A stretch of DNA of 64,000 nucleotides from Dehalococcoidia bacterium (GCA_965206395.1 CBDBJK010000027.1:4388-68387), one strand, 5' to 3'; positions 13,385 to 56,942 are shown, counted from the stretch's first letter. Notes: generated from the letters alone by a model not told the origin. A program made the numbers and translations.

Positions 13385-13530
13385 TCGTAATCCTCCTACA
13401 ATCGTTTTGACTTCGGCAACTGCGCCAGACTGGACGAACACTAGGTAATTCTGACCGGACGTATGGTATCATGCTGCCTAAATTCTTGATATTGGTTTGT
13501 TCGAGAAAACTCGATTCTTGCGAGGGCAAT

Positions 13531-14907
13531 ATGACCACCGTCATCAGAAACACGACAATCGTCACTGGAGACTCAGGCCGAACTATTCTTTACGATGCCG
13601 CCATCGCCGTGCAAGACGACAGCATAACCGCGCTCGGCTCTAGCGACGACGTTGCGGCAAAATATCCAGATGCCGAAGTCATAGACGGGCGCGGCAAGGT
13701 CGTATTCCCGGGCCTTGTCAACTGCCATACGCATCTGCTGGCAACGGCGGACAGGGGCATCCTTGAGGACTTCGGATTTCCTACCACGCTGCGATTTCCC
13801 ATCAGCGCACGTTCGCTGCTGACGATAGAGGAGAGGAACGTCATCGGACTCCTGGGCGCGTTAGAGGCCATTCGCAGCGGCACGACGTCCTTGTTGGAAA
13901 TCTCCAACGACATCCCACAGTACGCGGGCAGCCTCGACAAGTCAGGCTTGCGGCTCGTCCTCGCCGAAAACATCAACGATGTGGACGATGCTAGAGCCAG
14001 GGATAACGTATTCGAGTTTACGGAGCAGAAGCTCGACGCAGGCCTTCAGAGAAGCGTTGACCTGATCGAGAAGTGGCATGGCAAATCTGATGGCAGGGTG
14101 ACCTGCTTCATGGCCCCGCACGCTCCTGAAAACTGTTCGCCCGACCTGCTGCGCCGCAGCCTTCAGATGGCGGAGCAGTACGATGTCGGCTATACCATCC
14201 ACCTGTCGCAGAGCAACATAGAGATTGAGGCGGTTATGCGCACTCGCGGCGTCCGGCCAACCCAATACCTGTTCGCCAACGACTTCCTCGGCCCTCGGCT
14301 TGTCGCGGCTCACTGTCGCTACGTGGATTCGTCCGAGATTGCGCTTCTGGGCCAGACGGGTTCTGGCATCTCCAACAACGCTGCCATCGCCGCACGACGC
14401 GGAGCCGCTGCGCCTGCGAAGGAGCTTCTGGCGGCGGGCTGTGCTATGGGCATGGGGACGGACAACATGGCGGAGGATATGGTCGAAGTCATGCGTGCGG
14501 GCCTTTTCCTTGAGCGTGTGCGCCGCAACGACGAGATGGACCCTCAGCCAGAGGATGTGCTTGAGTGGGCAACCAGAGGGGGAGCGCGAATTCTAGGCAT
14601 GGACAAGCAGACTGGCACGCTTGAAGCAGGCAAGAAGGCTGACTTCTTTATCATCGACGCCATGCGGCCCCATCTGGTTCCGACATTGCGCATAGTGTCC
14701 GCGTTCGTTCATCAGGGACAGCCCGCTGACGTTACCGACGTGATGGTGGATGGAAACTGGGTAATGCGTGACAGCAAGGTTCTGACGATAGACGAGGCTG
14801 ACATCGTGCGTCGAGCGGAGCAGATAGGTCATTCGGTGTGGCAGCGTCTGTTGGAGCGATACCCCAACGTGCCGTTTCCTGTCTCGCTTCCTCCACACGC
14901 CCTGTGA
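13531..14907 (+). CDS. Amidohydrolase family protein (MtaD/chlorohydrolase/deaminase-like)
   Basis: Metal-binding motif GLVNCHTHL, with later HL..S and GTDN motifs. The start is set at ATG 13531 (MTTVIRNTTIVTGD). Confidence 0.8.
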   Translation: MTTVIRNTTIVTGDSGRTILYDAAIAVQDDSITALGSSDDVAAKYPDAEVIDGRGKVVFPGLVNCHTHLLATADRGILEDFGFPTTLRFPISARSLLTIEERNVIGLLGALEAIRSGTTSLLEISNDIPQYAGSLDKSGLRLVLAENINDVDDARARDNVFEFTEQKLDAGLQRSVDLIEKWHGKSDGRVTCFMAPHAPENCSPDLLRRSLQMAEQYDVGYTIHLSQSNIEIEAVMRTRGVRPTQYLFANDFLGPRLVAAHCRYVDSSEIALLGQTGSGISNNAAIAARRGAAAPAKELLAAGCAMGMGTDNMAEDMVEVMRAGLFLERVRRNDEMDPQPEDVLEWATRGGARILGMDKQTGTLEAGKKADFFIIDAMRPHLVPTLRIVSAFVHQGQPADVTDVMVDGNWVMRDSKVLTIDEADIVRRAEQIGHSVWQRLLERYPNVPFPVSLPPHAL

Positions 14908-39288: not shown

Positions 39289-39409
39289 TTCCTGCACGTG
39301 GCTGCAGGTGATGGATTTGGGGGGAATTACTTCAAGCCATTCAATCACCTCTATGCCAGAAGCTCGAAGACCCACATACAGACGTGTTGTAAAAGGAAAA
39401 TATAACTAA

Positions 39410-40289
39410 GAGCGTCTAACAAAACCATTATTGGAACAGAAAGCGAGAGCAGATGATGGCACAACCTATGGCCAAGAAAGCCTCATGTATGTCTGCCCTG
39501 CGCTCATATCGAACCCGTAAGCGTCGGAACTGATGAAGCCAACTCAGGCTTCTCTCAACCACCCATCTATGCACACCCAACCCGCTGCCATGCGGCTCAC
39601 CTCGCTTGGCCAGCAGCGGCCAGATATGTCGCTTCTTCAACTCCTTGCGAACAGGCTCAGAGTCATACCCTCTGTCTCCCTGCGCCTGAAGAGGACGCTT
39701 GCGAGGCCTGCCTCGCTTGCCCTTGACAGCAGATATGGCATCCACCAACTCAAGGGCTTGGGTGACATCGTGAGCGTTCGCGCCAGTCAACCTGACCGCC
39801 AGTGGAATGCCCTGGGCATCGGTTATGATATGATGCTTGCTACCCGCCTTCGCCCTGTCCGTGGGGTTGGGGCCTGTTTTCTGCCCCCAAAAACTGCTCG
39901 CACTGAAGCACTGTCCAGCACTGCGCGAGTCCAGTCTATGCGCTCAGCTGCTTGCAGGCGCTCAAGGCATACCAAGTGGATGCGCTCCCAGACTCCCGAC
40001 TGGTGCCAATCTCTGAGGCGCCTCCAGCAGGTCATCCCACTGCCACAGTCCATCTCCTTGGGTAGGTCTTCCCAGCCAATGCCTGTCTTTAGCACGAACA
40101 GTATCCCACTTAGGACCTGTCTGTCAGGTATCCTGGGCCTTCCTCCTTTCGGCTTCGGTGGTTGTGGCGGCAGTAAAGGTTGCACCAGTTCCCAGAATTC
40201 ATCGCTTACAAGGGGCTTAGACATTAGGTCATCCTCCTCCAGAGAATGTCCAGATTCTAACCCCTTTTATTAGGTTTTGTTAGACGCTC
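39410..40289 (-). mobile_element. IS5-family (IS427-like) insertion sequence, copy A (880 bp)
   Basis: 17-bp perfect terminal IRs GAGCGTCTAACAAAACC / GGTTTTGTTAGACGCTC flanked by TAA/TAA. It differs from copy B (42578-43457) by only 2 SNPs that I could find. Confidence 0.9.
39428..40224 (-). CDS. IS5-family transposase OrfAB (-1 frameshift at AGAAAAC)
   Basis: OrfA is MSKPLVSDEFWELVQPLLPP...GRPRIPDRQVLSGILFVLKTGIGWEDLP. OrfB is ...GPNPTDRAKAGSKHHIITDAQGIPLAVRLTGANAHD... in the -1 frame. The slippery A-AAA-C lies at plus-strand 39876-39882. Confidence 0.8.
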
Positions 40290-40324
40290 TAAGTGTTACC
40301 AAACGCTCTGATGCCTGCTAGGTA

Positions 40325-41880: not shown

Positions 41881-42081
41881 ATGTCAACAAGCAAAAAAGC
41901 AGTAAGCGTCCTTTTCGATGATGAGGAGTACGCAGATTTGGTCCGAAAATCCGCCGAGTTGACTCTGGCGGAGGGGCGTCGCGTCTCGGTCGCTGAGTTA
42001 GTCCGTAGGGCGACGCTCGCAGAATACACGCAAAAAAGAAAGGCTGCTGAACAGTTAAAGGTATCGTCCACTGAGAGTTAA
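41881..42081 (+). CDS. Ribbon-helix-helix (CopG/Arc-like) small protein
   Basis: 66 aa. KAVSVLFDDEEYADLVRKSAELTLAEGRRVSVAELVRRA fits a beta-strand plus two helices RHH pattern. AGGAGA SD. Confidence 0.55.
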   Translation: MSTSKKAVSVLFDDEEYADLVRKSAELTLAEGRRVSVAELVRRATLAEYTQKRKAAEQLKVSSTES

Positions 42082-42119
42082 CGCCTTGTAATCAATGCGT
42101 AGCAAATTCTTCGGCTTTT

Positions 42120-42152
42120 GCCAGTATTATTGCTGCGCTCAATAATACTGGC
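42120..42152. promoter_or_regulatory. Perfect 13-bp inverted repeat between the RHH gene and the kinase gene (operator or terminator candidate)
   Basis: GCCAGTATTATTG-CTGCGCT-CAATAATACTGGC. No T-run follows it. Confidence 0.3.
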
Positions 42153-42577
42153 GCTTACTCCTCGCCGTAACCAATCGTCCGTCGCGAAAATGTGCGGCAT
42201 TATTGAGGAATTGTCAAACACTACCATAGGCCAGTGAGAGTCATGGAAAAACGGTCGTTAGGTAAGGGTCGATACACACTCATTGAGAGGCTCGGAGAAG
42301 GGGCCGCCAAAGAGGTATTCCTTGCAAGGGACGAGGCTCTTCATCGAGACGTGGCGCTGTGCATGTTCAAGCCATCCATGCTCAAAAGCTTTATCAACCG
42401 GGTTGAGACTGAATCAAGGACTCTTGCCAGCCTCAACCACCCCAACATCATAGCCATATATGATGTTCTCGACGACGATGGCAGGTACATGATTACCGAG
42501 TATGTGTCCGGTGGTAGCCTGAAGTCGAAGATGGACAGGGACTGGAAAGGTGGCTCTGACCTGGGCGAGGTTACTAA

Positions 42578-43457
42578 GAGCGTCTAACAAAACCATTATT
42601 GGAACAGAAAGCGAGAGCAGATGATGGCACAACCTATGGCCAAGAAAGCCTCATGTATGTCTGCCCTGCGCTCATATCGAACCCGTAAGCGTCGGAACTG
42701 ATGAAGCCAACTCAGGCTTCTCTCAACCACCCATCTATGCACACCCAACCCGCTGCCATGCGGCTCACCTCGCTTGGCCAGCAGCGGCCAGATATGTCGC
42801 TTCTTCAACTCCTTGCGAACAGGCTCAGAGTCATACCCTCTGTCTCCCTGCGCCTGAAGAGGACGCTTGCGAGGCCTGCCTCGCTTGCCCTTGGCAGCAG
42901 GTATGGCATCCACCAACTCAAGGGCTTGGGTGACATCGTGAGCGTTCGCGCCAGTCAACCTGACCGCCAGTGGAATGCCCTGGGCATCGGTTATGATATG
43001 ATGCTTGCTACCCGCCTTCGCCCTGTCCGTGGGGTTGGGGCCTGTTTTCTGCCCCCAAAAACTGCTCGCACTGAAGCACTGTCCAGCACTGCGCGAGTCC
43101 AGTCTATGCGCTCAGCTGCTTGCAGGCGCTCAAGGCATACCAAGTGGATGCGCTCCCAGACTCCCGACTGGTGCCAATCTCTGAGGCGCCTCCAGCAGGT
43201 CATCCCACTGCCACAGTCCATCTCCTTGGGTAGGTCTTCCCAGCCAATGCCTGTCTTTAGCACGAACAGTATCCCACTTAGGACCTGTCTGTCAGGTATC
43301 CTGGGCCTTCCTCCTTTCGGCTTCGGTGGTTGTGGCGGCAGTAAAGGTTGCACCAGTTCCCAGAATTCATCGCTTACAAGGGGCTTAGACATTAGGTCAT
43401 CCTCCTCCAGAGAATGTCCAGATTCTAACCCCTTTTATTAGGTTTTGTTAGACGCTC
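42578..43457 (-). mobile_element. IS5-family (IS427-like) insertion sequence, copy B (880 bp), inside the kinase gene
   Basis: Same IRs as copy A, with TAA at 42575-42577 and 43458-43460. Confidence 0.9.
42596..43392 (-). CDS. IS5-family transposase OrfAB (-1 frameshift)
   Basis: Same as 39428-40224 except for 2 amino-acid differences in OrfB (DAIPAAKGK versus DAISAVKGK). Confidence 0.8.
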
Positions 43458-44950
43458 TAAGATTGCTTTCGAGGTTGCCGGCGCCCTCAGCTTCACCCAC
43501 GCTAAAGGCATATTTCACAGGGACGTGAAGCCGAGCAACGTGATGCTGACGCCGGAAGGCACGGCCAAGCTGGGAGATTTCGGCATGGCCAAACCCTTCA
43601 GCGACGAGTCCATCAGTGGAACTGGCGCAATCGAGGGCACTATCCCTTACATGTCACCAGAGCAGGCTAAGGGGTTGCCCCCAGATAGTCCCAGCGACAT
43701 GTATTCTTTTGGGGTAACGCTCTACGAAATGGTGACTGGCCGCAGGCCCTTCCATGGGGAGGATGTTTCGGTGCTGCTCCATCACCTGAACTCTATTCCT
43801 CCCCCTCCAACAAGATTCATGCTGGCCTGTCCTCCTCGGCTTGAGACGTTGATTCTGAACCTGCTGGAAAAAGACCCTGAATTGCGTCCTTCGGCATCCA
43901 GTGCGGAGGAGGAGTTGCGAAGCATCCGGGCAGAGTTTCTGGGCGAGAGATCAAAACCTATTGTTCCCATCTCTGCAATTCCCGGCGCGAATGACGAGGA
44001 CGATGGGGAAATCGAAATCCCTTCGCTGGAATCTCTGCAAGTTGGGCGGCTTTCAGATGCCCTTCAATTCCCTTCGACAGTCGTCCCGCTGTTCGCCGCC
44101 GCCCTGGCGTTAATGTTTCTAATCCTGCCGTTGCCTGGATTTTCGGCGATTGCATCAATCATCGTGATAGTCGGAGCAGGAAGTATCGCCGCCGCTTCCT
44201 TCGTCTGGCGCTATTTCGTCCGATACGGTCAGGACTACGCCATACGAATGCAGGAGTTGTTTGAACGTCAAGAGCACGCAAGAAGGGCGCAGGAACGGCG
44301 AGCGTTGAGAGAATTACGGGATACGCTGCGAACCGGATTCACGAGCATAAAGTCTTCCGAAGGCGTCCGATCGTTAAATCGTCTGGTGAATGAGTATGAG
44401 CAGCTTCAGGCGGTTGTAAGGGGTTGGCCAGAGCCGAACCTCGTGCCCATCGGCCAAATACCAATACTTATAGGCCAGACCTCCAGGGAGGGGCTCGACA
44501 TGCTTTATGGCGTGCTATATCGGCTGCAAATCGTCGACACATCAGACAAAAAGGGGCTGGAGGCGGAAGTTGAGACTCTGGAGAGAGACATACTGTTGCT
44601 GAAAGAGGACGAGACTCAAGCGGAGTTACTTAAGATACGCGAGGCTATGCTCTCGGCGCGAAATGAACATCTGAGATTGCTGAGCAGCCAAGAGTTACGG
44701 GCCGCGGAGTTCTTGCTCAGATCAAGTCTTATCGAAAGCTCCCTGAATCGGACTCGAATCGAACTGGCTTCTCTGAGGATTGACGGCTCTAAAGGAAGCG
44801 TCAGTGCCGTTGTCGAAGCGCTGCAGAGGACTATTGATCAGGCCAGAAAGGTCATGGAGGAGATGCGCGATCTTGGATTTTAAATAAACTCAAAGAGAGT
44901 CAGCAGAGCATCTATCGTCTAAGCAGCAAGCCATTTTCTGGAGTTAAGTT

Positions 44951-46153
44951 ATGGTTTCGGAACAACGCCCTGATGAACTAGAGGAAGAGCAAGAATTAAT
45001 CCCGTCAAGCACTAAAAGCATGACGCCCGTAGATGCGGTTGAGCCGACAGCCCCTCAAGGCATGTCAGAGGATGAGCGTAACGAACTGCGCGAGCGTGCC
45101 AAGGCATTGGTAGGAGAGCTTTCCAGCGTTGAGGGCGCAAAGGAGATGGAGCTGATAGACAGCGTGACGAGCGTTGGAATTCAGGCACAAAGGAGCAGCA
45201 GACCTGAGCTAGACCTTTTAAGGGTGCGCGTTGGCGAAATGCTCTCACAAGAGGGGACCGGGAGCGATATTGCTGGAAGCCTTGTCGATCTACGCATGAC
45301 GCTCAAAGAGATAAACCCCAATGAATTAAACAACCCCAGCCGTCTGAGGAGCTTGACCTCGATTGTACCCTTCGTCGACCGCCTCCCCTCTCCAATAAAG
45401 GTGCTGCAGAAGATTGCGATCAAGTACGAGCCTGTCTCCAGGCAGATTGACGTGATTGAAACGAAGCTTCGAGAAGGCCGAATGATGCTGACGAGGGACA
45501 ACGTCGAACTGAGGCAGGTCTATGAGCGGGTTGAGGAGCAGCGACTTCCGGTACAAAAGAATGCATATCTGGGAGAACTGCTGATGGCGGAGTTGCAGGC
45601 CCTGATTGATCAGACCGACAACCCTGTCAAAGCCGATAGGATTCGAGATGCTTTGTACAACGTCTCCATCAGGGTGCAGAACCTGCGGGTGATGGACCGG
45701 GTGTACGACCAATTCTTCGTCAGCATCGAGATGACCCGTCAGAACAACACACGGCTGGGCCAAGCGGTGGAGCAAACCTTGAGTGTCGCCACAAACGTTG
45801 TAACGGTTGGCCTTGCCATCCAATCTGCCCTTATCCGCGAACGACAGGTGATGGAAGCCAACGCACGCGCGCAGCAGTTCATCGGCGATTTGATAGTCGC
45901 CAACGCCGAGGCGATCAAAAGGCATACAGAGGAGATTGGTGAGGTTTATAACAACCCCGTGATAGCGATAGATAAGATTGCTCAGGCTCACCAGGAGCTG
46001 ATCGAGGCGATGGATCTCGCGGAACGCTTGAAGCAAGAAGGTATTGAAAAGGCACGAGTGAACATCACCGAACTCAGCCGACTATCCGAAGAGTTTCAGC
46101 AGAGGGCCGGGGCGCTTCGTGGTGCAGACAAAGTAGAGTCCGTTGAGGCATGA
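44951..46153 (+). CDS. TelA/KlaA-family (toxic anion resistance-like) protein
   Basis: 400-aa all-helical protein. The length, an acidic N-terminus and the central pattern (IKYEPVSRQIDVIETKLREGRMMLTRDNVELRQVYERVEEQRL...) resemble TelA/YaaN. Called by recollection, not by search. Confidence 0.7.
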   Translation: MVSEQRPDELEEEQELIPSSTKSMTPVDAVEPTAPQGMSEDERNELRERAKALVGELSSVEGAKEMELIDSVTSVGIQAQRSSRPELDLLRVRVGEMLSQEGTGSDIAGSLVDLRMTLKEINPNELNNPSRLRSLTSIVPFVDRLPSPIKVLQKIAIKYEPVSRQIDVIETKLREGRMMLTRDNVELRQVYERVEEQRLPVQKNAYLGELLMAELQALIDQTDNPVKADRIRDALYNVSIRVQNLRVMDRVYDQFFVSIEMTRQNNTRLGQAVEQTLSVATNVVTVGLAIQSALIRERQVMEANARAQQFIGDLIVANAEAIKRHTEEIGEVYNNPVIAIDKIAQAHQELIEAMDLAERLKQEGIEKARVNITELSRLSEEFQQRAGALRGADKVESVEA

Positions 46154-46192
46154 AGACGGCAAATTATTTAACTACCAGATTCCTTTCGATTA

Positions 46193-47010
46193 GGTTGTGT
46201 TGACATTTCATCTGAGCCATATGAGAGCACCGACGAAGTTCAAGAATCCCAGGAAACGCGATGACAGCTTGTCAAAGCGAGAGAAGATATGCCGGTAGTG
46301 CTTGATCTTGTTGATGAAACACTCCACAAGGTGGCGCTTCGGTAAAGGTACTCATCATACTCTCGTGGCGTCTTTCGATTTGACCGAGGTGGAATCACAG
46401 GTAACGCGCCCCTGCCCAGGATGCATTGGAGAAAATCCATCGAATCGTATCCCTTATCAGCAATCACATGCTCGGTTTCGAAATCAGCAATCAATGCCTG
46501 TGCCTGGGTGATGTCGTGACGTTGACCTGCTGTGAGCTCAAAGCGCAACGGGTTGCCCAATCCATCCACGCTCACGTGGATCTTGGTACTGAACCCGCCT
46601 CGGCTCCGGCCAAGAGCTTGGGCCGATTGGCCACCGTTTTTTTGGAGGCTCCAGCAGCACAGGGATGAGCGCGAACCACAGTGCTATCACAGTGCTATCA
46701 ATGATGACATGCTCCATATCGGGGTCTTGCACAAAATGCTGATGCATTCGTTCCCATACACCCTTTTCACACCAGCGTGCGAAGCGCTTATATACGCTGT
46801 TCCAGTGACCGTAGTGCTCAGGCAGCAGTCTCCAAGGAGCACCACTTCGTGCCATCCACAGGATGGCCTCGACGTAGCGCCTGCAATCGTCCTCCTCTCC
46901 AACGTAGAGGTCTGGGCATGAGCGCAGAAATTCAAGGATTTTCGACCATTGTTCATTGCGTAATTCAGTCGTTGACATGTATCCATTATGCACCAAATGT
47001 CAACACAACC
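46193..47010 (-). mobile_element. Decayed IS5-family (IS427/IS1031-like) element
   Basis: 16-bp perfect IRs GGTTGTGTTGACATTT / AAATGTCAACACAACC flanked by TA/TA. The transposase frames are broken (see the pseudogene entry). Confidence 0.75.
46240..46996 (-). pseudogene. IS5-family transposase, inactivated
   Basis: An 11-bp tandem duplication ACAGTGCTATC x2 (46678-46699) breaks orfA just upstream of the T7/A7 slippery run (46637-46643). A 1-nt indel near 46340 separates ...EYDEYLY from KRHLVECFINKIKHYRHIFSRFDKL...IWLR. Confidence 0.7.
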
Positions 47011-47231
47011 TAGTGTGCGAGCCTTAGGCTTTTACATATTGGCGTTTGCCAGTATAGGAATTGCGTACGGAACCGCGGAGGTAGCCACCGGATACGTCAA
47101 CCCTAGGATCGAGTTGGAGGCAGCCTATCCAAGCGATTATCCGGGGTGTCCGGACATATTTAACGTGCTTATGTTCAGCATTCCGTATGCGATCTGGTGG
47201 GTCGCGGTTGCGGCGTACGACCTGTGGCGTA

Positions 47232-47399
47232 GATATCGGCGAAGTGGGCAGCAGCCCAGTGATAACGATAGACAAGATCGCGCAGGCTCACAAGGAGCTA
47301 ATCAAGGCGATGGGTCTAGTAGAAAACTTGAAGCAGAAACGGGCCGATAGGACGCGAGAGAACCTCACCTGTTTGGCCCCATGCATAGGCAATCATTGA
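47232..47399 (+). pseudogene. C-terminal relic of a second TelA-like gene
   Basis: DIGEVGSSPVITIDKIAQAHKELIKAMGLVENLKQ aligns with TelA residues EIGEVYNNPVIAIDKIAQAHQELIEAMDLAERLKQ (45938-46045). Nucleotide similarity is clear over about 110 nt. No upstream part is present. Confidence 0.55.
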
Positions 47400-47435
47400 G
47401 GGTTTGAGGAGGAACCATCGGATGAAACGCTTACT

Positions 47436-49154
47436 TTGCTGCTCACAGGTCTGCTTATCGTTGTAGTGGTCGCGGCCATAGTCGTGCGTTTATTGCCCGA
47501 TGGCGACAACTCTGGTGAAGAAGTATCGGTCGCCGATGAACCGCCTGTTCCGTCTGGCTCCATCCTGGTGACATTAGTCTCTTCCAGTACCAAAGCAGAT
47601 TGGCTGGATCAAGTCATAGAGCGGTTCAATGCCGAGGATAGGAAGACGGCTTCGGGCAAGAGCATCGTGGTGCAAGTCAGCCACACGCGGTCAGGTAGTT
47701 CGATGGATGCCATCCTCGATGGTAAGTCGAAGCCCATAACCTGGAGTCCTGGCGACCAGTCCTGGGCTGCTCTAATTAACGAGAAATGGCGGCAACGAGA
47801 GAACCGCCCGCTCATTAGTCAGCCGTGCCAGCCCACGGTCTATGCCCCTATCGGTTTTGCCATGTGGCGGCCAATGGCCGAAGTGTTGGGTTGGCCCGAT
47901 ACGCCGATTGGTTGGGACACCATTGTCGAACTGGCCGCCGACCCGAATGCCTGGAAGGCTTACGGCCATCCTGAATGGGACCCATTTCGCTTTGGTCACA
48001 GTCATCCCGTTTACTCCAACACCGGGATGCTTTCCCTGACAGCCTTTGTCTATGGCATTCTCGGCGCTGGCAGCTCGATTTCGGCTGAGCAGGTTTACCA
48101 AGTAGAAGAATCGATGCGTTCCCTCGAGCAAAATACCTCCAAGTACGGTCGCGGATCAACTGCCCTATTCGACCTGATGGTCGAGCAAGGCACCGGCTAC
48201 GTGCATGCCATCGCTGCCTCTGAAGAGACCACACTCCGCTTTAACATTAACAAAGCCGACGAATTACGCTTCCCTCTGGCCTTCATTTTCCCGGATGAGG
48301 GCACCATCTGGGCCGATCACCCTTACTGCATCCTCGATAACGCTGATTGGGTAGATGACGCGCACGCGGAAGCCGCCGCTATCTTCCGTGACTATCTTCT
48401 ATCGCCAGAACAGCAGGCGTTGACTATTGACTACCGCCTGCGTCCAACTGACAGCAGCATTCCCCTTCACGCGCCCCTCAACCTGGAAAACGGCACCGAC
48501 CCACGTGTTGGCGTCGACAACGCGATCCTCCTTCCCAGCCCGGATGCAGAGGTGAGTGCATCTGTGATCGACCTCTTTATGATTACCAAACGCAAAGCTA
48601 CCGTCATAATCGTTTTGGACGTTTCCGGCAGTATGCGGGGGGAAAACATCAAGACCGCGACAGCCGCTACGGCTGAATTCCTAAGCAGGCTTGACCCCGA
48701 CGATGAGGTGGCCGTCTTAACCTTTAGCGATAATGTTGTCACCTTGTCTGATCCAGCCACCGTCCGCAACGTCGTCGAAGGGCTGTCATCGCGGGTTCGT
48801 ACCCTTACGGCCCTTGGCAGCACTGCCCTTCACGCAGCCGTCTGCAGGGCGACCGCGCTGGCCGACGAACTGCGAGTTGAGGACGAGGCGCAAGGTGAGT
48901 CGCGGTTGTACGGTATCGTTCTCCTTTCTGATGGCGACGATACGACAGGAGAGCCAACGGAACAACAGATGTTCACTATGTGCATCCCGAACAACGCTGA
49001 GGTGGATGGCTTCAAAATCTTCCCTATCGCCTTTGGCGGTGACGCCAATGAGACGCTCCTGCGGCGATTAGCTTTGAAAACTGGCGGGAAGCTGTTCACG
49101 GCAGACCCCGATTCCATCAGTGATGTTTACCTCGCTATTTCGGCGGAGCAGTAA
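47436..49154 (+). CDS. Membrane-anchored solute-binding-like plus vWA domain protein (vWA1); 5' end probably frameshifted
   Basis: N-terminal TM, a large domain paralogous to vWA3, and a C-terminal vWA with MIDAS DVSGSM...T...DGDD. The only in-frame start is TTG 47436. The SD-served ATG 47422 is out of frame. Confidence 0.7.
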   Translation: MLLTGLLIVVVVAAIVVRLLPDGDNSGEEVSVADEPPVPSGSILVTLVSSSTKADWLDQVIERFNAEDRKTASGKSIVVQVSHTRSGSSMDAILDGKSKPITWSPGDQSWAALINEKWRQRENRPLISQPCQPTVYAPIGFAMWRPMAEVLGWPDTPIGWDTIVELAADPNAWKAYGHPEWDPFRFGHSHPVYSNTGMLSLTAFVYGILGAGSSISAEQVYQVEESMRSLEQNTSKYGRGSTALFDLMVEQGTGYVHAIAASEETTLRFNINKADELRFPLAFIFPDEGTIWADHPYCILDNADWVDDAHAEAAAIFRDYLLSPEQQALTIDYRLRPTDSSIPLHAPLNLENGTDPRVGVDNAILLPSPDAEVSASVIDLFMITKRKATVIIVLDVSGSMRGENIKTATAATAEFLSRLDPDDEVAVLTFSDNVVTLSDPATVRNVVEGLSSRVRTLTALGSTALHAAVCRATALADELRVEDEAQGESRLYGIVLLSDGDDTTGEPTEQQMFTMCIPNNAEVDGFKIFPIAFGGDANETLLRRLALKTGGKLFTADPDSISDVYLAISAEQ

Positions 49155-49173
49155 ATCCTGTGAGTTCTCTGCA

Positions 49174-50094
49174 ATGAGACAACCTGTAGGAGGCGAAGTG
49201 AATTGTCCTAAGTGTAGCTTTGACTACGGCATGAGGGTGGAAGAGTTCAACTTCTGCCCCAAGTGCGGCGAACGCCTTCCCGATCTTCCTCAACTGAGCC
49301 AGACGGCGTGGAGGCGAGTCCAGTTGACAGACCTGGTTTTTTCATTCGTCCGCTTGATCGCGCCAGGAATGTTGGGCGGAGGAATAGCTCTCTGGTTCAT
49401 GGGGCCGGCCTGGTTCGCATATACCGAGACACTGACGGTACGCGTTATCAGCATAGTCTTGATGATTGGAGGCCCGCTGCTCTTTGCCCTGGCTCTGGCT
49501 GCCAGGAAGCTGGCCGAGGACATGGCCCTGCGCGGCGCGGCCAAGAACCCAGAAGATAGGAGGCCCGCGAACATCTACCTGCTGCTTGACGTGAGCAGGA
49601 GCATGGAAGGAAGCAAGCTTTCCAGCGCCAAGAAAGCGTTAGGGTCTTTCCTTGCCCAGGTTAATGGCGAACGGGATCACGTGGGTCTAATAACCTTCTC
49701 GCACAAAATCAAGGAGGTTCGCCCCTTGGAGCCAGCAGATGGGGCATCCTTTATTCAGAGCATACAGATGTTGGGAGCCGCCGGGAACACTGCTCTATAC
49801 GACGCCGTGATCCATGCCATCGGGCACTTTCAACAGATCGAAGGTTCAGAGCGGAGTAACATCATAATCGCCATGACAGACGGCGAGGACACGGCAAGTA
49901 ATCATTCGTTAAAGGACATCGACTCCACGATGGCTACGGCAGATACGCCTGTTTCCATATTCACCGTCGCCTATGGCTTTGGCGCTGACATGAAAGTGCT
50001 GCGGCAGATCGCCCAATGGGGTCATGGTCAGGCATATAAGGCCAATCGCCGAACAATTAGAAAGCTCTACGAACTGCTCTCGGCGTTCTTTTAG
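49174..50094 (+). CDS. Zinc-ribbon, 2-TM, vWA domain protein (vWA2)
   Basis: CPKCSF...CPKCG ribbon, two hydrophobic helices, and vWA MIDAS DVSRSM...GNTALYDAV...MTDGEDT. An alternative start is GTG 49198, preceded by AGGAGG. Confidence 0.7.
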   Translation: MRQPVGGEVNCPKCSFDYGMRVEEFNFCPKCGERLPDLPQLSQTAWRRVQLTDLVFSFVRLIAPGMLGGGIALWFMGPAWFAYTETLTVRVISIVLMIGGPLLFALALAARKLAEDMALRGAAKNPEDRRPANIYLLLDVSRSMEGSKLSSAKKALGSFLAQVNGERDHVGLITFSHKIKEVRPLEPADGASFIQSIQMLGAAGNTALYDAVIHAIGHFQQIEGSERSNIIIAMTDGEDTASNHSLKDIDSTMATADTPVSIFTVAYGFGADMKVLRQIAQWGHGQAYKANRRTIRKLYELLSAFF

Positions 50095-50147
50095 GTCAAG
50101 GCAATGCGTAATGCTATCGCAGTGGGAATAACGAGGAGATGAGTCAG

Positions 50148-52043
50148 ATGAAACCACTTACGTTGGCGCTCGGAGGTCTATTTATAGTTGCTGTGATCGC
50201 GGCCTTGGGTGTACGTTTCACATCAGTCGGAGATATATTCGACAGGACTGAGCCGGTTGTGGTAGTCCACTGGACTACGGGCCATCTGACGCGGGACGGG
50301 CTGCTGAAAGACATGGCCATACAATTCAACAAGGCCAAACACAAGACGAAATCCGGTGCGAAGGTCGTTGTTGAGGTCTACGATGCCCCTTCGGAGTTGC
50401 AGGGCGAATACTTGAGCGAGCTGCTGAGATTCGGAACGCGAAGGAATCTCCATGAGGAAACCAACGGGTACGTCGTCGAAAACATCCCGGACCCCACTAT
50501 CGTTACTCCCTCAAGCGCTCACTGGCTGGTAACCCTCAATCACGAAGTTGGGCGCTCCGTGGCCGACATAGACGCCGCCGATAGCATCGTCCGCCCGGTT
50601 ATCGGCATCGTCACCTACGAGGAGATGGCGAAATGTCTCGGCTGGCCCGAAAAGCAAATAGGCTTCGAGGACATAATAGCGTTGAGAGACGACGACCTTG
50701 GCTGGGCCAGATACCCCTGTGCCAGGGCCGAATGGGGGCAGAGGCCTCTGTTGGCCTTCACCGACCCAACTACCTCCAGCACCAGACGTAGTTTACATCT
50801 CGCACTCTACTCCTTTGCAGCGAACAAATTGCCGGAGGATCTCACTGTCGAGGATGTGAATGATCTGGATGTCGTTAACTACGTCAAGAAGTTCCAGGGC
50901 CTTATAGACCACTATCTGATTGGCACAACCGTTTTGAACACAAAGATCTATCAGGGGCCACGCTACGGCCACTTCTTCATTATGCCTGAGGACAACCTCA
51001 TCCATCTCTACGAGGGAACCGAAAAGTCCTACATGAACGGAATAAAGACCACGGCTCCTCCCATCGAGGCCCGCATGGTCATGATCTATCCGAAGGAAGG
51101 CTCCATGCCTCGCAACAACTGCGCCTGCATTGTTCGGGCAGACTGGGTGAGCGAAGAGCATGTTGAGGCGTCACAGCAGTGGATTGACTACATTCGGGAA
51201 GATGAGCAGCAGCGGACGTTCATGACGGCGGGTTTTCGGCCAGGGACAGACCTCGATCTCAACTTCCAGGGGAGCAAAATTACTAAAGAGTTTGGATTGA
51301 ACCCGGATGAACCAAAAGTAGTGCTCAATCCTTCGCTGACCAGGCCGGAGGTTGCCGCAGCCATCGACGAAAACTGGGAGCAAGTCAAGAGGCCTGGCAT
51401 TGTGACCTTCGTGGCGGATACTTCCGGCTCTATGGCTGGTGGCAAGCTTCAGCAGGCCAAGGATGGATTGATAGGCGCTCTCGACGCTATGGCCAGGAAC
51501 AACAAGGTCGGCTTTCTGTCCTTCGACGACACGGTCAATACTCGCATCCCTGTTGCGCCACTCGAAGTGAATCGCTTTGTCATCGCTGGTGCTGTGCAAA
51601 AGCTGAGAGCAGGAGGCCAGACCGCGCTTTACGACGCCATCAAAGCTGGAGTCGAGATGACTGATTCCGTTGAGGGAGATGCCGATGCCATTCGCGCAGT
51701 GGTTGTCCTGACAGACGGTCAGGCGAACCAGGGCAAAACGAAGGTGGATGAACTAATACACATGATATCCATTCCTGACGAGTTCCCTATCCGTGATTTT
51801 CAGGGTTTCGTGAGTGATTCATGGGCGACAGACGAAAATGGAAGGAGAATAACTAAACAAGACATAATTGGCACCGGGCTGGCTCTGGATACACGTCATC
51901 CAATTCAGATCTTCTTCATAGGTATAGGTGATGCCGATCTGGATATTGGCAGGTTGCTTGCTGGAGCGACCGGCGCAGAATTTCAGGGTGTCACCGAGGA
52001 TGATTTGGCCGAAGTGCTAGAGGAGTTCAGCAAGTACTTTTAA
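50148..52043 (+). CDS. Membrane-anchored solute-binding-like plus vWA domain protein (vWA3)
   Basis: MKPLTLALGGLFIVAVIAALGV anchor, a large N-terminal domain, and vWA MIDAS DTSGSM...GQTALYDAI...LTDGQAN. The start is set at ATG 50148, 9 nt after GAGGAG. Confidence 0.75.
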   Translation: MKPLTLALGGLFIVAVIAALGVRFTSVGDIFDRTEPVVVVHWTTGHLTRDGLLKDMAIQFNKAKHKTKSGAKVVVEVYDAPSELQGEYLSELLRFGTRRNLHEETNGYVVENIPDPTIVTPSSAHWLVTLNHEVGRSVADIDAADSIVRPVIGIVTYEEMAKCLGWPEKQIGFEDIIALRDDDLGWARYPCARAEWGQRPLLAFTDPTTSSTRRSLHLALYSFAANKLPEDLTVEDVNDLDVVNYVKKFQGLIDHYLIGTTVLNTKIYQGPRYGHFFIMPEDNLIHLYEGTEKSYMNGIKTTAPPIEARMVMIYPKEGSMPRNNCACIVRADWVSEEHVEASQQWIDYIREDEQQRTFMTAGFRPGTDLDLNFQGSKITKEFGLNPDEPKVVLNPSLTRPEVAAAIDENWEQVKRPGIVTFVADTSGSMAGGKLQQAKDGLIGALDAMARNNKVGFLSFDDTVNTRIPVAPLEVNRFVIAGAVQKLRAGGQTALYDAIKAGVEMTDSVEGDADAIRAVVVLTDGQANQGKTKVDELIHMISIPDEFPIRDFQGFVSDSWATDENGRRITKQDIIGTGLALDTRHPIQIFFIGIGDADLDIGRLLAGATGAEFQGVTEDDLAEVLEEFSKYF

Positions 52044-52243: not shown

Positions 52244-53440
52244 GGATGCTCTGAACAATCGGCTTCAGGCTGGGCCGAGTTGACCGGAGTGGTTTTGGGG
52301 GCGTTAAATTGCCTCATGGCACCGTGGTGAGGGTTATTGTCGGCCTACAACCGGCCCTGACAGGGCCTTTCGCCGCCCTTAGCCCTGATTTTGGGCGCAC
52401 TTATACAAGGTCTCACGCCGCCAGGTACTGTTCGGCCCTCATCAAGTTGGCAAACCCCAGCAGCGTCATCAGCCGCTGCGTGTTCTTGGACAGCCCCCTG
52501 TAGCGGACCTTGGCGTAGCCGAAGTGCCGCTTGATGTACAGGAACGGATGCTCCACCTTAGCTCTGACCGACGCTTTGCGCTTCTCCGACACCGCCTCAG
52601 GGCTCCCAGGCTCCAGCTTCCGACGCTGGCCGGGCCTCATCGCCACCTGCCACTCCACGTCCAAGCCCCGGTTCCCCGGCCTCTTGTCAACTCCCTGATA
52701 CCCAGCATCTCCCCACACCTGAGACTCCCCACCGTGCAGCAACCGGGGCAACTCAGTCAGGTCATGCACGTTCGCAGATGTCGTGGTCATGCTGTGCACC
52801 ACTCCCGTCTGCGAGTCCACACCGATGTGCACCTTCATCCCGAAGTGCCACTCGTTACCCTTCTTCGTCTGGTGCATCTCGGGGTCGCGCTCTTTAGCCC
52901 GATTCTTCGTCGATGAGGGCGCCGCTATGATGCTCGCGTCCACTATCGTCCCCTCCTGAAGACGGAGACCCTTGGACTCCAGATAGCGGTTGATCTCCTC
53001 GAACAGACCCGCGCCCAACTCATGCTCTTCCAGCAGGTGGCGGAAGTTCAGAATCGTCGTCTCGTCCGGCAGCGGCCCAGGCAGTCTCAGCCCTACGAAC
53101 CGCCTCACCGATTCGACCTCATAGAGCATGTCCTCCATCCCAGGGTCGCTCAGGTTGTAAAACAACTGCACGCAGTGTATCCGTAGCATCACCGATAACT
53201 CGTAGGGCCGCCGACCACGACCGGCCTTGGGATAGAACGGTCGAATGCGCTCTTCCAACTCTTCCCAAGGGATCAGTCCATCCATGCGCTCAAGGAACTT
53301 CTCCCGGCGAGTCTTTCGCTTCTTGCTCTCGTAGTCCAAGTCCGCAAACGTCGGCTGGTTCATTGCCTCTCCTCCCCCGTCTTCAGCCCTTGGCCCTATT
53401 TTACTATCCCACAAGCCATCGGGACTTATTCAGAGCATCC
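52244..53440 (-). mobile_element. IS5-group insertion sequence (1197 bp)
   Basis: Terminal IRs GGATGCTCTGAA... (12/12, then partial) flanked by the 4-bp duplication CTAG (52240-52243 and 53441-53444). Confidence 0.9.
52413..53363 (-). CDS. IS5 family transposase (DDE)
   Basis: MNQPTFADLDYESKKRKTRREKFLERMDGLIPW...GDAGYQG...VEHPFLYIKRHFGYAKVRYRGL is a classical IS5 transposase. The start is set at ATG 53363 after GGAGGAG. Confidence 0.9.
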   Translation of the reverse strand: MNQPTFADLDYESKKRKTRREKFLERMDGLIPWEELEERIRPFYPKAGRGRRPYELSVMLRIHCVQLFYNLSDPGMEDMLYEVESVRRFVGLRLPGPLPDETTILNFRHLLEEHELGAGLFEEINRYLESKGLRLQEGTIVDASIIAAPSSTKNRAKERDPEMHQTKKGNEWHFGMKVHIGVDSQTGVVHSMTTTSANVHDLTELPRLLHGGESQVWGDAGYQGVDKRPGNRGLDVEWQVAMRPGQRRKLEPGSPEAVSEKRKASVRAKVEHPFLYIKRHFGYAKVRYRGLSKNTQRLMTLLGFANLMRAEQYLAA

Positions 53441-55379: not shown

Positions 55380-55454
55380 TGGTAGGGATGGTTGGATTCG
55401 AACCAACGATCTATCGCTTATCAGACGATTGCTCTACCACTGAGCTACATCCCT
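55380..55454 (-). tRNA. tRNA-Ile (anticodon GAT), CCA encoded
   Basis: Manual cloverleaf: AGGGATG-TA-GCTC-AGTGGTA-GAGC-A-ATCGT-CTGATAA-GCGAT-AGATC-GTTGG-TTCGAAT-CCAAC-CATCCCT-A-CCA. Confidence 0.9.
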
Positions 55455-55457
55455 GTG

Positions 55458-55533
55458 TGGTAGGGGCGGAGAGGATCGAACTCCCGACAACTTGTTTGTA
55501 AGACAAATGCTCTTACCGCTGAGCTACGCCCCT
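55458..55533 (-). tRNA. tRNA-Val (anticodon TAC), CCA encoded
   Basis: Manual cloverleaf: AGGGGCG-TA-GCTC-AGCGGTAA-GAGC-A-TTTGT-CTTACAA-ACAAG-TTGTC-GGGAG-TTCGATC-CTCTC-CGCCCCT-A-CCA. Confidence 0.9.
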
Positions 55534-55537
55534 ATGA

Positions 55538-55611
55538 TACGCCTGCCTGGACTCGAACCAGGGACCAATGCCTTATGAGAGCATCGCTCTAACCAACTGA
55601 GCTACAGGCGT
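55538..55611 (-). tRNA. tRNA with anticodon CAT (elongator Met, or Ile2 if lysidinylated); CCA not encoded
   Basis: Manual cloverleaf: ACGCCTG-TA-GCTC-AGTTGGTTA-GAGC-G-ATGCT-CTCATAA-GGCAT-TGGTC-CCTGG-TTCGAGT-CCAGG-CAGGCGT-A. The 1:72 position is paired and there are no 3 G:C pairs in the anticodon stem, so it is not an initiator. Confidence 0.85.
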
Positions 55612-55778: not shown

Positions 55779-56942
55779 ATGGAACGCCCTAAGAAGCTAT
55801 CAGCAACCTTTGTCAAGACGATCTCTGCCCCAGGGCGATATGGAGACGGGCGCGGCGGGCATGGCCTGTCATTGCTGGTGAAGCCTTCGTCAACTGGACG
55901 GGTCCGGCGTATCTGGTGCCAACGTCTGAGGATCGATGGCAAGGCGGTTGACCTGGGGCTAGGTTCGTTCCCGGTGACGACGTTAGCCGAAGCACGGGCA
56001 AAGGCGTTGGCCAACCGCCGATCCATCGAACACGGCCAGGACCCGCGCACCAAGGCTCGCACAGTCCCGACGTTCTCTCAAGCTCTTGAGACAGTGATAG
56101 ACCTCCATCAAGCCAATTGGAAGAATCCCCGCGTTGCCGGTCAGTGGCGGGCCAGCATGAAAGTGTACGCCTTGCCGAAGCTGGGGCGCAAGACCGTTGC
56201 CGCTATCACCACGTCGGACATTATGGCCGTGCTGTCTCCGATATGGTTGGAGAAACGGGAGACGTCCCGGAAGCTACGCCAGCGGTTGGGGATGGTAATG
56301 AAGTGGGCGGTTGCAGAAGGCTATCGGGATGATAACCCGGCTGGTGATGCAATCGGCGCGGCCCTACCCAAGCCAACCCAACAAGTGGTCCACCAAAAGG
56401 CGTTGCCATTCGCGGAAGTGGGCGCGGCCTTGGCTGCCATCCGAGAGACCGGCGCTTGGCCAGCAACGAAACTTGCCTTTGAGTTTTTGACACTCACAGC
56501 AACCCGGTCTGGTGAGGTCCGTCAAGCAACCTGGTCTGAGATAGACCTTGAGAATCGGGTATGGGAGATTCCAGCGGCGAGAACGAAAACCGGCAAGGTG
56601 CATCGTGTCCCTTTGTCTAATCAGGCGATGGATCTGCTAGAGCAAGCGCGGGAATCGACCGGCGGCGAGGGCTTGGTGTTCCCGGCGCAGCGTGGAAAAC
56701 CGTTGACGGATAGCACCATTAGCAAGCTCGTGCGGGAAAATGGCATCGGTTGTGTACCCCACGGTATGCGCTCCAGCTTCCGAGATTGGGGGGCTGAATG
56801 TTCGGATGCGCCAAGAGAGATAGCCGAGTTTGCCTTGGGCCACGTCGAAGGTTCGGCTGCGGAACTGGCCTACCGGCGAACAGATTACTTTGAACGCCGT
56901 AGGGAATTGATGCAAGCCTGGGCCGACTACCTGGCCAGCTAA
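55779..56942 (+). CDS. Tyrosine-type site-specific integrase (P4-like, DUF4102-type N-terminus)
   Basis: N-terminus KLSATFVKTISAPGRYGDGRGGHGLSLLVKPS. Catalytic motifs are ATRSGEVR, HGMRSSFRDW and LAYRRTDYFERRRELM. Confidence 0.85.
   Translation: MERPKKLSATFVKTISAPGRYGDGRGGHGLSLLVKPSSTGRVRRIWCQRLRIDGKAVDLGLGSFPVTTLAEARAKALANRRSIEHGQDPRTKARTVPTFSQALETVIDLHQANWKNPRVAGQWRASMKVYALPKLGRKTVAAITTSDIMAVLSPIWLEKRETSRKLRQRLGMVMKWAVAEGYRDDNPAGDAIGAALPKPTQQVVHQKALPFAEVGAALAAIRETGAWPATKLAFEFLTLTATRSGEVRQATWSEIDLENRVWEIPAARTKTGKVHRVPLSNQAMDLLEQARESTGGEGLVFPAQRGKPLTDSTISKLVRENGIGCVPHGMRSSFRDWGAECSDAPREIAEFALGHVEGSAAELAYRRTDYFERRRELMQAWADYLAS

Follow-up and report, generated by a model that had tools for sequence, protein, structure and literature searches.

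We analysed a 64,000-nucleotide (nt) stretch of DNA from a Dehalococcoidia bacterium (GCA_965206395.1 CBDBJK010000027.1:4388-68387; hereafter, the window), in which a cluster on the + strand (41881-52043) encodes a Ser/Thr kinase fused to a membrane-anchored helical domain that we call TAIL, a TelA protein and three proteins with von Willebrand factor A domains (vWA1, vWA2 and vWA3). With a probability of roughly 0.55, this locus represents, in partly decayed form, a membrane module that is centred on TelA, is conserved in Dehalococcoidia-type Chloroflexota and serves in envelope protection or sensing. The conserved core of the module is TAIL-TelA-SBP::VWA (SBP, solute-binding protein; double colons denote fusions), to which the kinase is an optional N-terminal addition on TAIL, and the zinc-ribbon, two-transmembrane-helix (2-TM) protein vWA2 and a small putative regulator are recurrent accessories. 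An earlier reading of the sequence (the original prediction) had proposed that the locus follows a combined vWA, kinase and TelA logic; all of its open reading frames (ORFs) were found, reading in one direction, and the combination proved to be a genuine conserved neighbourhood, albeit one built on the core just described, with the kinase as an optional part.

Recurrence of the gene order in other genomes carries this conclusion. Using TAIL alone, 26 metagenome contigs were retrieved and the proteins of the window were mapped onto them. TelA was the next same-strand gene after TAIL in 21-22 of the 24 contigs with enough downstream DNA; it was convergent to TAIL in one of the 24 and missing from one. 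Eight contigs in which the DNA runs on past TelA had an SBP::VWA gene downstream of it, and three further contigs had an SBP::VWA or VWA gene just upstream of TAIL, placing SBP::VWA beside the TAIL-TelA pair in 11 loci, of about a dozen with enough DNA. The TAIL-TelA order was also present in the loci of relatives designated L001, L088, L090, L123, L124 and L125, the nearest relatives of the window being metagenome-assembled genomes (MAGs) of Dehalococcoidia and SAR202. Several loci retain longer portions of the arrangement: L123 holds a homologue of the small ORF, an insertion sequence (IS), kinase::TAIL, TelA, a vWA3 relic and a vWA1 orthologue; L124 holds kinase::TAIL, TelA and a vWA3 orthologue; L125 holds TAIL, TelA, SBP::VWA, an IS and a vWA2 homologue; and the contig of protein P0244 holds FHA, kinase::TAIL, TelA and a 613-aa VWA protein. 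Orthologues of vWA3 are found directly 3′ of TelA in L096 and L124, and both vWA1-type and vWA3-type SBP::VWA genes occur directly after TelA, in different contigs. L001 is the nearest relative for which a long contig is available; there, the vWA1 orthologue is followed by short remnants of vWA2 and vWA3, which indicates that the vWA1-vWA2-vWA3 order predates the lineage of the window. Because flanking genes differ among loci, this recurrence is not simply shared synteny, and the neighbourhoods are independent. The original prediction had allowed that the arrangement might be an accident of IS activity among genes that are never adjacent elsewhere; with adjacency seen in many unrelated contigs, we reject that origin.

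TAIL is defined by a two-helix hairpin followed by ~230 helical residues that end in the motif ...TIDQA..V.EE...LG[FY]. In the window, the hydrophobic part spans 52 residues with a central P-L-P-G, a pattern that indicates a 2-TM hairpin and replaces the single hydrophobic segment previously assigned to the kinase. TAIL is a separate 309-aa gene directly 5′ of TelA in L001, and standalone TAIL proteins carry the same two-helix hairpin. A HMMER profile search of 1.84 billion representative proteins recovered 621 members (E<=0.001), most of them ~300 aa in length, and no Pfam model for TAIL was found. Five of the six long members scanned are Pkinase::TAIL fusions, and the sixth is a DUF2167::TAIL fusion (P0134, 593 aa), in which TAIL is joined to a non-kinase N-terminal domain. 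Approximately a dozen matches of 390-470 aa hold only the second half of TAIL, at the C-terminus; the N-terminal regions of the three scanned (P0164, P0181 and P0195) had no Pfam match. A diverse TAIL alignment (A3) was too divergent for search patterns, and a closer alignment (A2) was used for contig retrieval. The AlphaFold2 (AF2) model of the cytoplasmic domain is all-helical (pLDDT 68), and Foldseek returned only weak long-helix matches (BAR/eisosome, AhlC and designed bundles).

The TelA protein aligns with PF05816 from position 15 to position 329 of the 332-position profile, essentially its full length, and scores 138.5 bits (cut-off 30). It is a soluble helical protein without a strong transmembrane (TM) segment. 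Its gene starts at 44951 on the same strand as TAIL, which stops at 44883, and its product is 53-65% identical to those of the TelA genes that follow TAIL in relatives. The original prediction also listed a relic of a second TelA-like gene; this too was recovered, as a segment (47232-47378) corresponding to TelA residues 328-376 with 59% amino-acid identity (tblastn, E 1e-12; Pfam TelA, E 0.02), and in L088 and L090 a TelA gene occupies the position of the relic, before the vWA1 orthologue. In L088 (8699-9909), L090 (11037-12247) and L091 (5615-6825), which come from three independent assemblies (an ENA long contig, an NCBI MAG and Logan), a frameshift at one identical site divides the TelA gene beside the vWA1 orthologue into parts of 210 aa and 192 aa; it may represent either a shared pseudogene or a programmed frameshift.

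All three vWA proteins are matched by the VWA or VWA_2 profiles above cut-offs, and each has a complete metal-ion-dependent adhesion site (MIDAS; D-x-S-x-S, T, D), reading DVSGSM/T/D, DVSRSM/T/D and DTSGSM/T/D; the MIDAS residues of vWA1 are invariant across 22 orthologues. vWA1 additionally matches SBP_bac_11 (47.2 bits against a cut-off of 25), more weakly the sulfate/thiosulfate binding-protein models TIGR00971 (E 7e-5) and CysP (E 0.004), and, below threshold, vWA-TerF-like. The only solute-binding match of vWA3 is a sub-threshold one to SBP_bac_8 (E 0.005), but its N-terminal domain is clearly a paralogue of that of vWA1, with 24% identity over 397 aa (E 5e-19). Profile searches thus confirmed the TelA and VWA assignments of the original prediction, and its picture of three vWA proteins with intact MIDAS motifs, two of them fused to a paralogous N-terminal domain behind a membrane anchor and the third bearing a zinc ribbon (CxxC...CxxC) and two TM helices, was borne out. 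In the AF2 model of vWA1, the VWA part was good and the SBP-like part was of low confidence, its fold unconfirmed, so that the fold search confirmed the VWA domain only. The nearest solved relatives of this domain, by sequence and structure, include the extracellular ITIH, CLCA, alpha2delta and anthrax-toxin receptors, together with archaeal ArnB and BatB.

The distribution of charge places these proteins on different sides of the membrane. Around the single TM helix of the 22 vWA1 orthologues, the N-terminal flank averages 1.6 K/R and 0.1 D/E, and the 15 residues after the helix average 0.2 K/R and 2.8 D/E; under the positive-inside rule, the SBP-like and VWA domains would face outward, and both large vWA proteins (vWA1 and vWA3) are accordingly predicted to be extracytoplasmic. 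As such they could not be TerY-like cytoplasmic phospho-targets, a role left to vWA2 alone, in which basic residues after the zinc ribbon and two TM helices suggest, by a simple rule, a cytoplasmic VWA domain; that domain would point towards TerY, the zinc ribbon and the helices away from it. The vWA2 ORF is open from 49120, and a GTG at 49198 gives a protein of 298 aa, as in the database copy of the window's protein. Since its homologues, a conserved Dehalococcoidia family, are uniformly 297 aa long, translation most probably starts at 49198 and not at 49120. The small ORF at the 5′ end of the cluster, previously called a ribbon-helix-helix (RHH) gene, is present and conserved beside the cluster; the RHH fold itself found no backing, as the ORF gave no match in Pfam, NCBIfam or PDB. 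Homologues lie just after TelA in L086/L087 (60% identity over 47 aa) and upstream of kinase::TAIL in L123 (62% over 53 aa), and the ORF may encode a regulator.

The kinase gene is broken at present by an 880-bp IS (42578-43457), which is bordered by TAA target duplications (42575-42577 and 43458-43460) and recurs at 39410-40289, the 889-nt stretch shared with this second copy (39405-40293) differing at 2 positions. Upon in silico removal of the IS and one TAA, the pieces join in frame (resuming at 43461) and yield an uninterrupted protein of 588 aa. Both pieces match the Pkinase profile, and the restored protein matches PknB-type and Pkinase models and has the motifs HRDVKPSN, DFG and SPE, which together identify a Hanks-type Ser/Thr kinase, although the lysine for ATP is conserved in the glycine loop and the canonical beta3 site holds Cys. 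What had been described as one kinase gene (42234-44883) therefore does encode a kinase domain, now in two parts. By simple topology rules the kinase domain must be cytoplasmic, and the hairpin would bring TAIL back into the cytoplasm.

The active site of this kinase departs from the usual pattern at two residues: its glycine loop reads G-E-G-A-A-K, and Cys replaces the usual beta3 lysine (DVALCMFK; residues 20-46 of the restored protein). The same two changes are found in the four closest kinase::TAIL relatives (P0140, P0144, P0154 and P0265; 44-52% identity), and in alignment A5 the loop lysine, at the third position of the loop (G-E-G-A-x-K), is present in 5/5 and the beta3 VAIK lysine gives way to Cys, with Gly in one. 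More distant fusions and neighbouring kinases retain VA[IVL]K and are without the loop lysine. A glycine-loop lysine defines WNK kinases and has been proposed to allow chloride binding in the active site (PMC7606576). The likeness to WNK kinases consists in a catalytic lysine located in subdomain I (the glycine loop, G-x-G-x-x-K) instead of subdomain II; the window's kinase differs in being a bacterial Hanks-type enzyme fused to a membrane module. The resemblance may be convergent, and a shallow literature search turned up no bacterial precedent for such a relocation of the lysine.

Relatives of the locus are richer in phospho-signalling genes than the window. The original prediction had described a phosphatase-less cluster, and tblastn, run with a relative's PP2C for the phosphatase, indeed found neither PP2C nor FHA in the 64-kb window; the relatives' clusters, however, carry PP2C, FHA and a second kinase. 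In L001 a PP2C, an FHA protein and a kinase come after the vWA genes; L085 has an FHA protein with a winged helix-turn-helix (FHA-wHTH), a PP2C, a kinase and three vWA proteins beside TelA; and in L088, L090 and L091 an FHA protein and a kinase lie upstream of TAIL-TelA-SBP::VWA. PP2C genes occur in L001, L085 and L102/L103; L088, L090 and L091 hold a fragment of 61 aa from the PP2C C-terminus. An IS of the window sits at the site that PP2C-FHA-kinase occupies in L001, which makes loss the simplest reading, and the state without a phosphatase is probably a local loss in a decayed copy rather than a property of the system. In the L001 PP2C region (12639-13663), a separate small ORF ~120 nt downstream of the gene is an exact copy of its final 55 codons, either by local tandem duplication or as an artefact of low-coverage long-read assembly. 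Furthermore, the second kinases of L001 (14469-16523) and L090 (6782-8953) have a post-TM ectodomain ~30% identical to the N-terminal domain of vWA1, so that signalling and vWA proteins share one SBP-like sensor domain. The module is probably impaired in this genome, where an IS splits kinase::TAIL, no more than a 3′ stub is left of the second TelA, and neither PP2C nor FHA is present.

The locus is not a member of any named system; we place it among TelA-centred membrane complexes, combined with a vWA/kinase/phosphatase switch. We did not file it under a known name because it fails two of the three TerY-P features and is ambiguous on the third (a small cytoplasmic TerY-like vWA protein), has no TerC or TerD, carries a TAIL without detectable homology to XpaC, and draws only generic matches from PADLOC. 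The TerY-P triad consists of a TerY-like vWA protein, a PP2C and a Ser/Thr kinase with a C-terminal zinc ribbon (Anantharaman et al. 2012, as summarised in PMC11090510). Like the triad, the cluster combines a vWA protein that has a MIDAS with a Hanks-type kinase, joined in relatives by a PP2C, in a neighbourhood linked to the tellurite-resistance protein TelA. The window differs in having no PP2C, in a kinase C-terminus made of a TM hairpin and the TAIL helical domain without zinc ribbon or OB fold, and in two large, SBP-fused and predicted extracellular vWA proteins out of three. The earlier judgement that the cluster does not match the described triad thus holds, both PP2C and the kinase zinc ribbon/OB fold being wanting; its label as a Ter/TerY-kinase-like cluster does not suit vWA1 and vWA3, which are predicted to face outward.

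Other catalogued systems fit no better. When TerC of Curtobacterium and three TerD proteins served as tblastn queries, the 64-kb window gave no match better than E 0.1, and no cluster ORF had a Pfam match to either; the claim that TerB/C/D/Z are absent is therefore upheld for TerC and TerD, TerB and TerZ having had no query of their own in that search. The cluster is not a Ter (TerC/TerD) locus. Neither is it a vWA-MoxR (VMAP) or BatA-E system, as the gene for a MoxR-type AAA+ ATPase that membership calls for is absent from the cluster ORFs (Pfam) and from the conserved neighbours in 80 loci. A screen against PADLOC models, one of the checks suggested at the outset, revealed no catalogued system: TelA, vWA1, vWA2 and vWA3 gave no match, and the kinase gave only generic hits (to models such as mad6, PD-T4-6 and PglW).

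The closest parallel in layout is the xpaC-telA (yaaN) pair of Bacillota, in which a two-helix hairpin plus helical cytoplasmic protein is likewise encoded directly 5′ of telA and co-directionally (B. subtilis xpaC-yaaN, L. monocytogenes lmo1966-1967 and E. faecium xpaC-telA); we saw the order in B. subtilis, S. aureus and Cytobacillus records. This pair has been tied to cell-envelope stress and implicated in tolerance to nisin and further cell-wall antibiotics, to daptomycin and to tellurite (PMC12791056, PMC6811118), and TelA has been described by the Aravind group as a component forming sub-membrane structures (PMC7824862). TAIL, however, is ~100 residues longer than XpaC, and in Chloroflexota the pair is accompanied by predicted outward SBP::VWA proteins, by kinase fusions and by FHA and PP2C. 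Homology of TAIL to XpaC was tested in three ways and is not supported; none of 41 TAIL members, for one, matched PF10112 at E<=1. In the S. aureus and Cytobacillus spongiae records, a VWA gene (annotated NorD / VWA domain-containing) is convergent to xpaC-telA (L120 5026-5876; L121 4040-5864), lying ~0.7 kb downstream in Cytobacillus and 1.6 kb downstream in S. aureus, which may hint that the linkage of TelA with vWA proteins extends to Bacillota.

In the abstract of a 2012 study, Anantharaman, Iyer and Aravind reportedly predicted sensory complexes at the membrane that contain TelA and possibly periplasmic-binding-protein-II domains, so that the module is less novel than it might seem. The vWA proteins of the D. 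radiodurans DRA0331-0334 and ArnAB systems are cytoplasmic. Operons of this vWA/STK/FHA/PP2C kind (STK, Ser/Thr kinase; for example DRA0331-0334, bioRxiv 10.64898/2026.01.23.701218, and archaeal ArnA/ArnB) contain the same four domain types as the clusters of the window's relatives, and the VWA chain of the ArnAB complex (8s05) is 29% identical to the VWA domain of vWA1; the bioRxiv abstract and the PDB title, in contrast, name no TelA, TAIL or solute-binding-like ectodomain.

The module is probably an envelope stress sensing or protection system. The mechanism that we propose is read from context, namely from composition, gene order and conservation. The outward SBP::VWA proteins would bind or detect something at the cell surface, candidate ligands being an anionic small molecule (from the likeness to sulfate/thiosulfate binders) and/or a protein held through the MIDAS. 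Through its hairpin, TAIL would pass this signal across the membrane to TelA, which lies at the inner face. Phosphorylation on Ser/Thr, by kinase::TAIL or by a receptor kinase with the same ectodomain, might switch the assembly or its transcriptional output, with FHA reading the phosphorylation and PP2C resetting it. The output would be protection or monitoring of the cytoplasmic membrane and envelope, on the model of Firmicutes xpaC-telA.

An unlikely alternative is that the locus is a TerY-P-like anti-phage or anti-invader module, in which a vWA-kinase-PP2C switch triggers protection and TelA blocks entry at the membrane. The co-occurrence of vWA, Ser/Thr kinase and PP2C (plus FHA) in relatives would suit such a role, as would the position amid IS elements near a tRNA cluster and an integrase, the kinase matches to PADLOC models, and reports that TerY-P-like modules act as stand-alone defence systems and that TelA and Ter have ties to phage resistance (PMC11090510, PMC7824862). 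Yet those PADLOC matches are generic and extend to none of the other proteins, the kinase is without the C-terminal zinc ribbon/OB fold of TerY-P kinases, and the two large vWA proteins have a predicted extracellular location; nor was any nuclease, NTPase or other effector found in the loci examined, and the GC (guanine plus cytosine) content of the cluster is that of the rest of the window. We regard as doubtful, too, a system for sensing and resisting oxyanions or metalloids, whereby the SBP-like ectodomains bind a sulfate/thiosulfate/molybdate/tellurite-type oxyanion, TelA gives tolerance and the WNK-like kinase might be an anion switch. This idea draws on the vWA1 matches to SBP_bac_11 and to sulfate binders, on the name of the TelA family ('toxic anion resistance') and on a glycine-loop lysine like that of chloride-sensing WNK kinases (PMC7606576), but the sulfate-binding matches are far under cut-offs and the WNK resemblance amounts to two residues. 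Moreover, the cluster is without an oxyanion transporter, reductase or methyltransferase, and the best-documented Firmicutes TelA phenotypes involve cell-envelope antibiotics as much as tellurite (PMC12791056).

Several considerations weigh against an envelope module. vWA1 itself has more than 1800 homologues, the one at rank 120 still being 60% identical. A contig scan with a single TelA protein found no relatives and was replaced by a scan with the vWA1 alignment, which yielded a vWA1 orthologue in 80 species-level genomes; Anaerolineae, Ardenticatenaceae and Promineifilaceae make up most of these, and a few are Trueperaceae. Only 2 of the 80, both Dehalococcoidia, have TelA within 10 kb of the orthologue, and clustering of all neighbouring ORFs in the 80 loci gave no universal partner; SBP::VWA can evidently work without TelA, and the coupling may be lineage-specific. 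The commonest neighbour, and the sole recurrent one outside Dehalococcoidia, is one or two patatin-like phospholipase genes upstream (13 of 80 loci, of Ardenticatenaceae and Promineifilaceae type; for example, L002/L016 7813-9941). A 238-aa membrane protein without a Pfam match adjoins the vWA1 orthologue in three Dehalococcoidia loci (L001 9199-9915, L086 12042-12668 and L006 4314-4940) and was not found in the window. Also on this side of the balance, IS insertions and frameshifts in several copies, including the window's, could mean that the module is dispensable; the Foldseek search of TAIL against PDB, with no match at E<0.001, was uninformative, and hhalign gave TAIL and XpaC a probability of 5% with the TM hairpin alone aligned; the ligand class of the SBP-like domain is a guess, as the domain was poorly modelled and phmmer found it no solved sequence relative among PDB sequences; topology was deduced from hydropathy and from counts of charged residues rather than by a dedicated predictor; and the function of every member is deduced from its context.

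The least probable of the alternatives is that SBP::VWA proteins are autonomous surface proteins (of adhesion, matrix or cell wall) whose adjacency to TelA and the kinase is lineage-specific or IS-driven and uncoupled. In its favour, 78 of the 80 loci are without a nearby TelA, TAIL or cluster kinase, and the window and several relatives are IS-rich. Against it, TAIL-found loci nearly always have TelA next, with SBP::VWA beside the pair in 11; two SBP::VWA paralogue types each occupy the place immediately after TelA, in separate contigs; relatives have the SBP-like domain joined to a neighbouring kinase; and gene order and strand are kept despite differing flanks. The coupling of SBP::VWA to TelA is thus specific to the Dehalococcoidia/SAR202-like lineage, and within that lineage we favour the TelA-centred envelope module.

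Coordinates of the cluster and its right border are collected in Table 1.

Table 1 Features of the cluster, with strand and supporting evidence (positions counted from the first letter of the window)
Feature	Position	Strand	Evidence or remark
Small ORF, 66 aa	41881..42081	+	Fold unverified; kept beside cluster elsewhere
Kinase::TAIL 5′ part, N-lobe, residues 1-115	42234..42577 (ORF to 42587)	+	Pkinase profile positions 1-90, E 5e-12
880-bp IS4/5-family element inside kinase gene	42578..43457	-	DUF4096 E 6e-29, DDE_Tnp_1 E 3e-13
Kinase domain 3′ part and linker	43461..44058 (ORF 43525-44883)	+	Pkinase profile positions 124-257, E 5e-21
TAIL two-helix TM hairpin, residues 315-366 of restored protein	44059..44214	+	52-residue hydrophobic stretch, central PLPG
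TAIL cytoplasmic all-helical domain	44215..44883	+	Ends in ...TIDQA..V.EE...LGF motif
TelA, 400 aa	44951..46153	+	PF05816, E 3.7e-40
Second IS4/5-family transposase, two ORFs	46240..46996	-	DUF4096 E 1e-22, DDE_Tnp_1 E 2e-10
3′ relic of second, diverged TelA	47232..47399	+	Directly 5′ of vWA1; short ORF overlaps relic
vWA1: signal-anchor, SBP_bac_11-like domain, VWA with MIDAS	47436..49154	+	Pfam; predicted extracytoplasmic
vWA2: CxxC...CxxC zinc ribbon, two TM helices, predicted cytoplasmic VWA with MIDAS	49198..50094	+	VWA E 5e-18
vWA3: signal-anchor, SBP-like domain, VWA with MIDAS	50139..52043	+	VWA_2 E 2e-12, weak SBP_bac_8
IS transposase, right border of cluster	52413..53414	-	Pfam DDE_Tnp_1 and DUF772

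Four IS copies lie within 14 kb (39410-40289, 42578-43457, 46240-46996 and 52413-53414), two of them near-identical. The one that separates TelA from the relic occurs once in the window, its coordinates being those of the transposase ORFs and not of delimited element ends, and the last sits immediately after vWA3. The clusters of the relatives L086/L087, L123, L125 and L001 are likewise full of IS elements and frameshifts, which suggests that the module is often in decay in these genomes. To the right of the locus, genes for tRNA-Ile(GAT), tRNA-Val(TAC) and tRNA-Met(CAT) lie on the minus strand (55380-55611), beside a tyrosine integrase with an Arm-DNA-binding domain (55779-56942), which is followed by a helix-turn-helix (HTH) transposase-like gene, and the region is a possible integration hotspot. 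The original prediction had placed the locus in an IS-rich region near tRNAs and an integrase, and this setting is as described. An Rfam scan found the three tRNAs and nothing else, and promoter and terminator scans of the sequence gave signal at chance level only.

TelA is widespread, and reports connect it with resistance or tolerance towards tellurite, nisin, daptomycin and phage or colicin. In Chloroflexota it gains a strongly conserved partner, TAIL, a family of more than 600 representative sequences without a Pfam model, and the repeated fusion of TAIL to a Ser/Thr kinase, with surface-exposed SBP::VWA proteins encoded downstream, turns this partnership into concrete interaction and phospho-switch hypotheses. 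The odd layout of the present locus and its missing phosphatase probably reflect IS-driven decay. Apart from this, the WNK-like lysine shift in one lineage of bacterial kinases is a minor curiosity. A bolder proposal, which we advance as a long shot, is that TAIL-TelA-SBP::VWA forms an unnamed trans-envelope complex in which anion-type and MIDAS domains report to TelA through the hairpin, and which in one sub-lineage is driven by a WNK-like, possibly anion-sensitive kinase; if true, the TelA family would gain a defined partner set and a testable signalling logic.

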